64,000 bases of DNA, taken from NCBI GenBank assembly GCA_016618385.1, contig JABFOP010000357.1, positions 415,545 to 479,544 on the forward strand, given 5' to 3'. The position numbers and the translations under genes are program-made. This document shows, piece by piece, positions 41,229 to 42,517 of the stretch (positions are counted from its first letter, which is position 1; every line of letters starts with the position of its first letter). Below the pieces are notes generated by a model. The model had not been told where the DNA came from and ran no database searches. It saw nothing but the letters and a program-made list of their open reading frames with translations. The stretch comes from Nymphon striatum (taxonomy: Eukaryota).

Positions 41229-41535
41229 AGTGGAACTGAAGAATTTTCTCCGAAGTGCATCAATATTGGGATTTGACATCATTCCTTTAGTGCAAACATT
41301 TGGTCACATGGAATTTGCATTGAAACTTCCCCGTTTCAAGAAATTAAGAGAAAACTCATTATATCCCAATAATCTGTGTCCATCTCAAATGAAATCAATG
41401 GAACTAGTAAAAGAAATAATTTCCCAGGTTGTGTCTTTTCACAAAGAGTTCCGAATTAAACAATTGCATATTGGATGTGACGAAGTGTATCATTTGGCCG
41501 AATGTGAAATTTGTTCTAAAAGTGCTTGCCAATAG
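41229..41535 (+). CDS. HEXDC: HEXDC-like exon 2 ([34 protein letters not shown]...KQLHIGCDEVYHLAECE..). The reading frame fails near 41515 and hits a stop at 41533.
   Basis: ttatcag acceptor at 41228. It matches [33 protein letters not shown]...RLHIGCDEVYYLGEGE. Confidence 0.7.
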
Positions 41536-41782
41536 TCTATATGGAAATTGGACTTTGTTTCTGAAGCATGTGAAAGCTGTTGCTGAGCATGTGCAAAGTG
41601 TACACTGGCTTGACTCCGATCATTTGGGATGACATGCTTCGTAAGATTCCTGAAGAAACCATCAGAGTGCACAATGTACAAGATGTTGTGGAGATAATGG
41701 TTTGGAATTATCATCCGCATGTTCCCTGAGTCTCTTAATGAGGTAACTTGGATGAAATATAAGAATTTAGTTTCGCCATAAA
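41500..41782 (+). pseudogene. HEXDC: HEXDC-homologous stretch read only by hopping frames 1 to 2 to 0 to 1 to 2, with four +1 shifts. The fragments VLANSLYGNWTLFLKHVKAVAEHVQSV, then LTPIIWDDMLRKIPEETIRVHNVQDVVEIMVWNYHPH, then MKYKNLVSP, then FRHKMWAAS are all homologous to consecutive HEXDC segments.
   Basis: Overlapping ORFs in three frames (41158..41535, 41429..41632, a third in frame 0, 41783..). Each continues the HEXDC alignment (..LSHMRAVASGV.., ..VTPLVWDDMLRDLPED.., ..LLMQKYRRCGFPQLWAASAFKGATG). Confidence 0.6.
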
Positions 41783-42517
41783 ATGTGGGCTGCTAGCTCT
41801 TTTAAAGGAGCAACCGGAGTTGATCAAATGATGACATCTCCTCAGTATCACCTTAGAAATCATAAGATATGGATGGAAACTGCATTCAACCACAGTCACG
41901 ACTTTTCTTTTAAAGGTATTGCACTCACTGGATGGCAACGTTATGATCATTTCTCTGTAATGTGTGAATTACTTCCTGTTGCAATACCAAGCTTAATTTC
42001 TAATCTTCGTTATTTGAATAATCCTGATTTGTCTGACGAACAACTGATAGATGAAGTTCGGGATGCTTTGAAGTGCAACAACCCGCTTCCTTTAGATATT
42101 CCAAATTCTACTTTTATTGCTGAATGTTCTTTTCCTGGAAGTTCTATTTACAAGTCAATTTTGGAAGTGTATAATTTGAATCTTAATTATTTTTACATAA
42201 TAAAAAACAGTCATATGGCTGGTTGGATGACTAGTTATCAAGTGCTCAATTCGTATAGTAACCCTGACCATGTTAGGCTTGCCATGAGAGGCATTCGAGG
42301 AATAACTCAACGATATGCTTTTCTGGCAACAAGTTTACCACAGCAGCTCAGTGAAATTTACGAACAAGAAACCATTGATGAATGGTATTTTATGTACTTT
42401 GGAAATATTAAAAGTGATTTACGAAAGTTGGAATGGCATGCTGAAAAACTGATGTCACAAACAACTTGGCCTCGAAGATATTTCTCGCATAAAGATCCTG
42501 TTTCTACAATATGAAAA
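41771..42517 (+). CDS. HEXDC: HEXDC-like C-terminal region in one open frame ([16 protein letters not shown]...[26 protein letters not shown]...TWPRRYFSHKDPVSTI*)
   Basis: A 243-aa ORF that matches HEXDC LWAASAFKGATG...[25 protein letters not shown]. Confidence 0.75.

Follow-up and report, generated by a model that had tools for sequence, protein, structure and literature searches.

A 64,000-nucleotide (nt) stretch of the draft genome of the pycnogonid Nymphon striatum (assembly GCA_016618385.1, contig JABFOP010000357.1, positions 415,545 to 479,544; hereafter the window, whose own numbering is used throughout) carries a gene for hexosaminidase D (HEXD) whose reading frame changes four times within 244 nt of its second exon. 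Each change corresponds to a single extra base relative to the orthologous exon of another pycnogonid, and the coding sequence on both sides is intact and conserved. We consider it likely, at roughly 75%, that the four bases are spurious insertions arising from local insertion/deletion (indel) error in the consensus of the draft assembly, and comparison with orthologs suggests that they are most likely absent from the real DNA of the animals. The frame changes described in the original prediction were therefore correctly observed, but they most probably stem from the assembly, and the hexosaminidase D gene of glycoside hydrolase family 20 (GH20) in which they lie is otherwise ordinary, intact and conserved.

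The hexosaminidase D gene and its frame changes

Pfam returned no family for the conceptual protein of the window, neither Glyco_hydro_20 (PF00728) nor any other, at E≤0.01 or at E≤0.1, and homology was therefore established through database and structure searches. The best database match is the deposited 'Hexosaminidase D [Nymphon striatum]' (P0001, 518 amino acids (aa)), followed by HEXD of spiders, horseshoe crab, ticks, crustaceans and insects at about 40% identity; the matches at E≤1e-10 number 2,348 and are labelled hexosaminidase D across arthropods. When the frame changes are corrected, residues 87-568 align with the solved β-N-acetylhexosaminidase PDB 8qk1_A (E=2.8e-81), gap-free at all four shift sites. 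PF00728 is precomputed for nearly all of the relatives, the two closest excepted, and the missing match is a matter of sensitivity, not evidence against homology. Judged by this full-length homology, the gene is a HEXD homologue of GH20, confirming its initial description as HEXDC-like.

The HxGxDE motif of GH20 is read directly from the window as HIGCDEV, which pairs with HIGADEV of 8qk1_A and with HIG[CSAN]DEV of the orthologs; its D-E we take to be the catalytic pair, as is general for GH20. This motif, IxWDDM, WPRR and the further strongly conserved HEXD motifs are all preserved in the corrected reading. No second N. striatum HEXD protein occurs among the database matches listed. The locus is the sole annotated hexosaminidase D (GH20) gene of the species; it is composed of two exons and is in all likelihood both intact and functional in the animals.

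The gene lies on the forward strand of a window that is AT-rich (GC content ∼33%). Exon 1 begins at 39419 (ATG) or 39407 (GTG) and ends at 39849 in phase 2 ('AA'), bearing out the span of 39407 to 39849 given originally. It encodes an N-terminal hydrophobic anchor and the beginning of the GH20 barrel (LVHLDLKGAPP...), and its product is identical to the N-terminus of P0001; the alignment with 8qk1_A begins at residue 87. Intron 1 (39850..41228, 1,379 nt) is read directly, has the canonical boundaries GTAAGT...TTTTTATCAG and contains only trivial repeats. Exon 2, the terminal exon, spans 41229..42514, with its TGA stop codon at 42512-42514, so that the end of the gene first placed at 42517 was 3 nt too far; it is this exon that in its deposited form contains the four extra single bases. 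Scans with Rfam and for tRNA genes detected nothing bearing on the HEXD locus.

Orthologous exons were taken from genomic Logan contigs of two other pycnogonids. Contig L001 (SRR24188319) encodes a product (P0002) with 81% identity to the exon-2 product of N. striatum, while contigs L002/L003 (SRR30938155/6) come from a more distant pycnogonid whose product (P0003) is 54% identical. The acceptor of intron 1 is found at the homologous position in both L001 (ttttctcag, then AGTGGAG) and L002 (ttcttacag, then G). The original prediction had proposed a comparison with related species; in L001 the acceptor is followed by one unbroken 1,281-nt open reading frame (ORF) through to the stop codon, and in L002/L003 exon 2 is likewise one continuous ORF from acceptor to stop. 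As an aside on the contig itself, the 5' part of L001 (1-150, minus strand) is GC-richer and unrelated-looking, with a 50-aa ORF called on the other strand, and an A10 run at 181-190 precedes intron-like AT-rich sequence; this part may be a repeat or a chimeric join within the contig, and the exon comparison is unaffected.

In a global nucleotide alignment of the window with L001, the 1,285 nt of the exon are gap-free save for four single extra bases in the window, located at ∼41526 (GC[T]TGCC), 41606 (CAC[T]GGC), 41727 (CCC[T]GAG) and 41769 (TTT[A]GTT). Deleting these four bases leaves 1,281 nt, the length found in L001, without a stop codon. Unlike the exon, the flanking intron and 3' untranslated region differ between N. 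striatum and L001 by multi-base indels. Because the exon alignment is gapless apart from the four bases, each shift amounts to one inserted base and needs no spacer. The same result upholds the four successive +1 frame changes claimed for this gene, each being exactly one base, and removes the need for the 19-nt spacer (41504-41522) that had been proposed at the first junction.

Three-frame translation of the window shows how the homology is broken. It can be traced only by passing through frames 1, 2, 0, 1 and 2 in turn, between ∼41520 and 41771. Read literally from exon 1, the frame meets its first in-frame stop, TAG, at 41533..41535, ∼15 codons past HIGCDEV, which would truncate the protein. 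Beyond this stop the homology continues as VLANSLYGNWTLFLKHVKAVAEHVQSVH, then as GLTPIIWDDMLRKIPEE...VWNYHPH, then as PESLNEVTWMKYKNL, and finally in the last frame to the stop codon.

The first shift (frame 1 to 2; 41525..41528) is one extra base in GC[T]TGCC, best placed at T41526/41527 within a homology bracket of 41518-41530, and the corrected reading CSKSAANSLY stands opposite CSEAAAKSPY of the ortholog. At the second (frame 2 to 0; 41605..41606, CA[C][T]GGC) an extra T lies between the His and Gly codons, where L001 has CAC-GGC; it is not a homopolymer extension, and both CAC and CAT encode His. The third (frame 0 to 1; 41726..41727) is one extra base in CC[C][T]GAG, opposite CCC-AAA in L001, with CCC and CCT both encoding Pro. 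The fourth (frame 1 to 2; 41769..41770) is one extra base in TT[A][G]TTT, opposite TTT-GTTT in L001, i.e. TTG TTT; again it does not extend a homopolymer, and TTA and TTG both encode Leu.

Two of the shifts had been linked to neighbouring A4 runs, an association that was not supported. The second run (41780-41783) lies 10 nt downstream of the shift, and the new frame (TTT CGC CAT AAA ATG) is already set by 41771. The first run (41518-41521) falls inside the ambiguous bracket, but the alignment puts the extra base at T41526/41527. On the nucleotide alignment, we rejected a homopolymer as the cause of the shift at site 4 and do not favour one at site 1.

Each of the four events is a +1 insertion; they are identical in type and size and confined to 41526-41769. 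Such clustering inside 244 nt of a 1.7-kb coding sequence has a probability of ∼0.01, computed from the alignment coordinates. At the local density (4 per 244 nt) the other 1,041 nt of exon 2 should hold ∼17 further indels, yet they hold none. The corrected frame is free of stop codons over 88 codons, while the other frames of this AT-rich sequence carry many.

Origin of the extra bases

Selective constraint on the gene was assessed against L001. The ratio of nonsynonymous to synonymous substitution rates (dN/dS, Nei-Gojobori) is 0.07 upstream of the shifts, 0.21 in the shifted segment, 0.20 downstream and 0.17 overall, with a synonymous divergence (dS) of ∼0.6, and nucleotide identity has the same value, 0.837, within the patch and in the sequence downstream of it. 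Relative-rate tests gave 15 unique amino-acid changes in the N. striatum lineage versus 17 in the L001 lineage with P0003 as outgroup; with spider or horseshoe crab as outgroup the counts were 10 versus 14 and 10 versus 13, respectively. By these measures there is no acceleration and no relaxed constraint of HEXD in the N. striatum lineage, in agreement with the earlier argument, drawn from the intact flanks, against old decay.

The history of the assembly is pertinent here. It was made with PacBio reads from a pool of 40 individuals, a design described as 'increasing the effective heterozygosity' and as having hurt assembly quality (PMC12220506). Where a long-read assembly collapses a heterozygous genome, allelic variants close to one another are documented to misdirect read alignment and to leave indel errors that look like frameshifts and that annotation software converts into spurious introns; the same study also reannotated 'intron-containing' genes as frameshifts (Cosentino et al. 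2021, PMC8445201). The HEXD locus resembles that artefact in that single-base indels break an otherwise conserved ORF and the annotation creates spurious introns. It differs in that the artefact is here deduced from sequence comparison, and in that four errors fall in one 244-nt patch with ∼2.3 kb of other coding sequence clean.

Three options had been put forward originally: a very young pseudogene, assembly errors, or something unusual. Given the pooled PacBio source, the single-base lesions and the intact constraint, four consensus errors fit best. A young pseudogene survives only in the form of a clustered event on one haplotype, and the unusual possibilities, recoding or micro-introns, found no support. 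Apparent frameshifts caused by indel errors in long-read assemblies have reportedly also been described by Watson and Warr in 2019.

A plausible course of events can be proposed for such errors. The assembly would have collapsed noisy PacBio reads from 40 pooled, heterozygous animals, and in a stretch dense in single-nucleotide polymorphisms between the pooled haplotypes the read alignments would render a substitution as an insertion plus a deletion. The consensus could then retain both alleles side by side, leaving one extra base per site. The deposited gene model subsequently hid the shifts behind invented introns of 53 and 50 nt.

We infer this doubling of alleles from the sites themselves. 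Three of the four can be read as a synonymous transition at the third codon position with its two alleles standing next to each other (CA[C][T] for His, CC[C][T] for Pro and TT[A][G] for Leu), and at each of these three one of the two bases is the L001 base. When random single-base insertions were simulated in the HEXD coding sequence, 13% fitted such synonymous doubling, giving a probability of 0.008 for at least three of four, a figure that is optimistic as the pattern was noticed post hoc. The window sequence contains no N, no case masking and no mark of a scaffold gap or gap-fill patch. Same-species evidence was sought through exact look-ups with the 243-aa C-terminal ORF and the deposited protein, which returned no match, and in a database search using just the shifted segment no fragment exceeded 56% identity.

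Several points weigh against consensus error. The doubling hypothesis was formed after the data had been seen. Site 1 falls outside the synonymous-doubling pattern and fits only a T duplication or a non-synonymous pair (C/T, Ala/Val, or T/G, Ser/Ala). A further ∼1,470 nt of HEXD and ∼850 nt of coding sequence of a neighbouring kinase gene are without a frame problem, so the errors would have to form a local burst. The reads are termed 'HiFi' in one account (PMC12220506), and if that is correct such errors are less expected. Finally, the case for the absence of the extra bases from the real DNA is made by sequence comparison.

The best surviving alternative, which we regard as unlikely, is that the four insertions are real and define a very recent HEXD null allele, either still segregating or newly fixed, that arose in one clustered mutational event, for instance error-prone repair synthesis over a patch of ∼250 nt. 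The deposited sequence does itself contain the insertions, the further ∼2.3 kb of conserved coding sequence checked in the window gives no sign of a generally sloppy consensus, and the insertions at 41606 and 41769/70, not being homopolymer extensions, are atypical of the commonest residual long-read errors. Such an event would nevertheless have to add four +1 insertions, to all appearances independent, within 244 nt while leaving no detectable substitutions beside them, since identity (0.837) and dN/dS are unchanged, and the lack of acceleration in the N. striatum lineage also counts against it. Real 1-nt insertions mostly copy the base next to them, and deletions are usually present among natural indels, which likewise argues against this explanation. 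Nor is there any reason, if the insertions are real, for three of the sites to fit synonymous allele pairs. The insertions, if real, arose essentially at once and very recently.

A far less probable reading is that of an ordinary unitary pseudogene, in which HEXD function was lost in the N. striatum lineage and the gene is decaying neutrally. Several frameshifts, the literal stop at 41533-41535 and the lack of a second HEXD protein of the species among the matches listed would all suit it, and frameshifts with a premature stop between intact flanks are what a young unitary or polymorphic pseudogene displays. The locus differs from such a pseudogene in that constraint is unrelaxed, there is no acceleration, the ancestral frame contains no stop and the lesions are neither spread nor mixed. 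Because dN/dS is unchanged (0.17 overall, 0.21 in the shifted segment), the lineage is not accelerated (15 changes versus 17), all catalytic and structural motifs persist, the ∼17 indels expected in the rest of exon 2 (1,041 nt) are absent, and the lesions are all of one type and size with none elsewhere, gradual neutral decay is rejected. On this sequence evidence, the ordinary pseudogene reading is effectively refuted.

The deposited gene model

We mapped the deposited protein P0001 onto the window to recover its gene model. The model contains a 53-nt 'intron' at 41535..41587 (GTCTAT...GCTGAG), which bypasses shifts 1 and 2 at the cost of the conserved SLYGNWTLFLKHVKAVAE, and a 50-nt 'intron' at 41721..41770 (GTTCCC...ATTTAG), which skips shifts 3 and 4 and is exonic and colinear in L001. 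The residues lost to the 53-nt 'intron' are conserved in both P0002 and P0003. Two further features are unneeded for the frame: an in-frame 30-nt 'intron' (41378..41407), which removes 10 residues present in the orthologs, and an acceptor at 41256, 27 nt downstream of the homologous one, which drops residues that the orthologs share. These two features suggest that the annotation pipeline permitted unrealistically short introns genome-wide.

Could the shifted stretches really be spliced out as very short introns, restoring the frame in the mRNA? We consider this highly improbable. GT..AG boundaries do exist at 41504-41522 (19 nt), 41535-41587 (53 nt) and 41721-41770 (50 nt), and P0001 makes use of the latter two. 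However, the orthologous genomic exons of two other pycnogonids are colinear and unbroken at these positions, and the would-be introns code for residues that are conserved and kept by purifying selection (SLYGNWT.FLKHVKA.AE and, for the 19-mer, an ECxxC motif). The donors of the 53- and 50-nt 'introns', GTCTAT and GTTCCC, are poor, while the homology-supported introns in the window are all 68-2,989 nt long with GTAAGT- or GTGAGT-like donors. One base per site fully accounts for the shifts without micro-introns. The 19-nt candidate was rejected separately, as it would delete the conserved C-E-I-C-S-K at a place where the ortholog is colinear. On this comparative evidence the 53- and 50-nt 'introns' are annotation workarounds, not introns.

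The least probable explanation, recoding, would have the full-length enzyme made through four programmed +1 ribosomal frameshifts or through RNA-level deletion of four bases; its sole support is that all steps are +1 and that the downstream frames are open and conserved, while no motif is common to GCTTGCC, CACTGGC, CCCTGAG and TTAGTTT, the sites pinned to a single base (CAC-T-GGC and TTA-G-TTT) show no stop and no recognised slippery or hungry-codon context, and the shift sites are absent from L001 and L002 and hence not conserved. A stop-triggered +1 shift was rejected in its own right: the conserved GLTPIIWDD, in the new frame, sits upstream of the first stop (TGA) of the old frame, so the shift occurs before any stop. 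Compared with known programmed +1 frameshifting (antizyme, and the AAA-TAA/TAG sites of Euplotes), the likeness is confined to the +1 direction of all steps; a conserved site, a shared motif and a stop at the pinned sites are lacking. To our knowledge, antizyme is the only well-established case of +1 programmed frameshifting in animal nuclear genes, and we know of no single-base deletional editing in such genes.

If the extra bases are an artefact, as we favour, the deposited N. striatum HEXD protein of 518 aa would be wrong, having lost ∼55 conserved residues and gained a short out-of-frame peptide; deleting the four bases yields a corrected HEXD of 570 aa. Set beside HEXD/HEXDC orthologs, the gene has full-length homology once the four bases are removed, and it differs from them in a deposited frame that is broken four times. 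The value of the result would in that case be practical, lying in the corrected gene structure and in a flag on the deposited protein model. The N. striatum draft is one of very few pycnogonid genomes in comparative use, and micro-introns of 30-53 nt in its annotation would mark hidden frameshifts. Alleles standing side by side (C/T, C/T and A/G at synonymous third positions) would in addition offer a cheap, read-free diagnostic for errors in pooled assemblies. If instead the insertions were real, the locus would represent either a very recent loss of this conserved glycosidase or, with far lower probability, an unprecedented instance, in an arthropod, of recoding at several sites.

Neighbouring genes and repeats

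Upstream of HEXD, on the same strand, lies a phosphorylase-kinase-γ-like gene with exons within 3474-10813 and a C-terminal exon at 16063-16152. Its exons were located with human PHKG2 as a guide; the conclusion rests on the canonical GT-AG junctions of the window itself and on the match to Pfam, not on the guide. Once spliced, its product spans the Pfam protein-kinase profile from 1 to 263 of 263 without interruption (E=8e-78), and no frame had to be corrected. The gene is divided into many small exons, with introns of 68, 79, 70, 76 and 99 nt and others of 1-5 kb, and its calmodulin-binding-like C-terminal exon lies 5.2 kb beyond the main exon block. The region between guide residues ∼292 and ∼348 was not located in the window. 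Together with the clean parts of HEXD, the kinase makes up the ∼2.3 kb of conserved, indel-free coding sequence; since it splices cleanly, the indel problem is local and not general to the window. Inside the long last kinase intron, on the opposite strand, is a tRNA-Ala gene (anticodon TGC, 12463-12536, minus strand; ARAGORN, and Rfam at 45.3 bits).

Towards the right end of the window, WD40-repeat exons occur on the minus strand at 58279-58446, 63781-63999 and probably 55377-56883 (…LRLSWSPDGQFLVSAHAMNNSGPTARIIERDGW…, …ACSWDGTIAYIDFEDNE…), with a weak-to-moderate match to Pfam WD40. They belong to a gene that runs past the window end and presumably, as a candidate assignment, resembles HIRA. 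In or beside this HIRA-like gene, on the opposite strand, a 213-codon open frame (58537-59175, plus strand) has an acidic middle rich in Asp, Ser and Asn (…DDEETLGFDEDYPSDELETDSDDNVDNDNDSESDSDNE…); it gave no Pfam match and may encode the N-terminal part of a transposase, either domesticated or decayed.

Fragments of transposable-element ORFs are scattered across the window at 21090-21803 and 22898-23290 on the minus strand, and at 25949-26254, 29477-29668 and 54232-54594 on the plus strand. They comprise an integrase-like tail (weak rve_3 match) and several C-terminal copies of reverse transcriptase of the long interspersed nuclear element (LINE) type (…YGSE.W…RKTN.W…). Two pairs of repeated blocks were also found, 22220-22627 resembling 33784-34191 and 24890-25207 resembling 34644-34970. 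The published repeat content of the N. striatum assembly, 7.14%, has been remarked upon as an outlier (PMC12220506), and the window looks considerably more repeat-rich than that figure.

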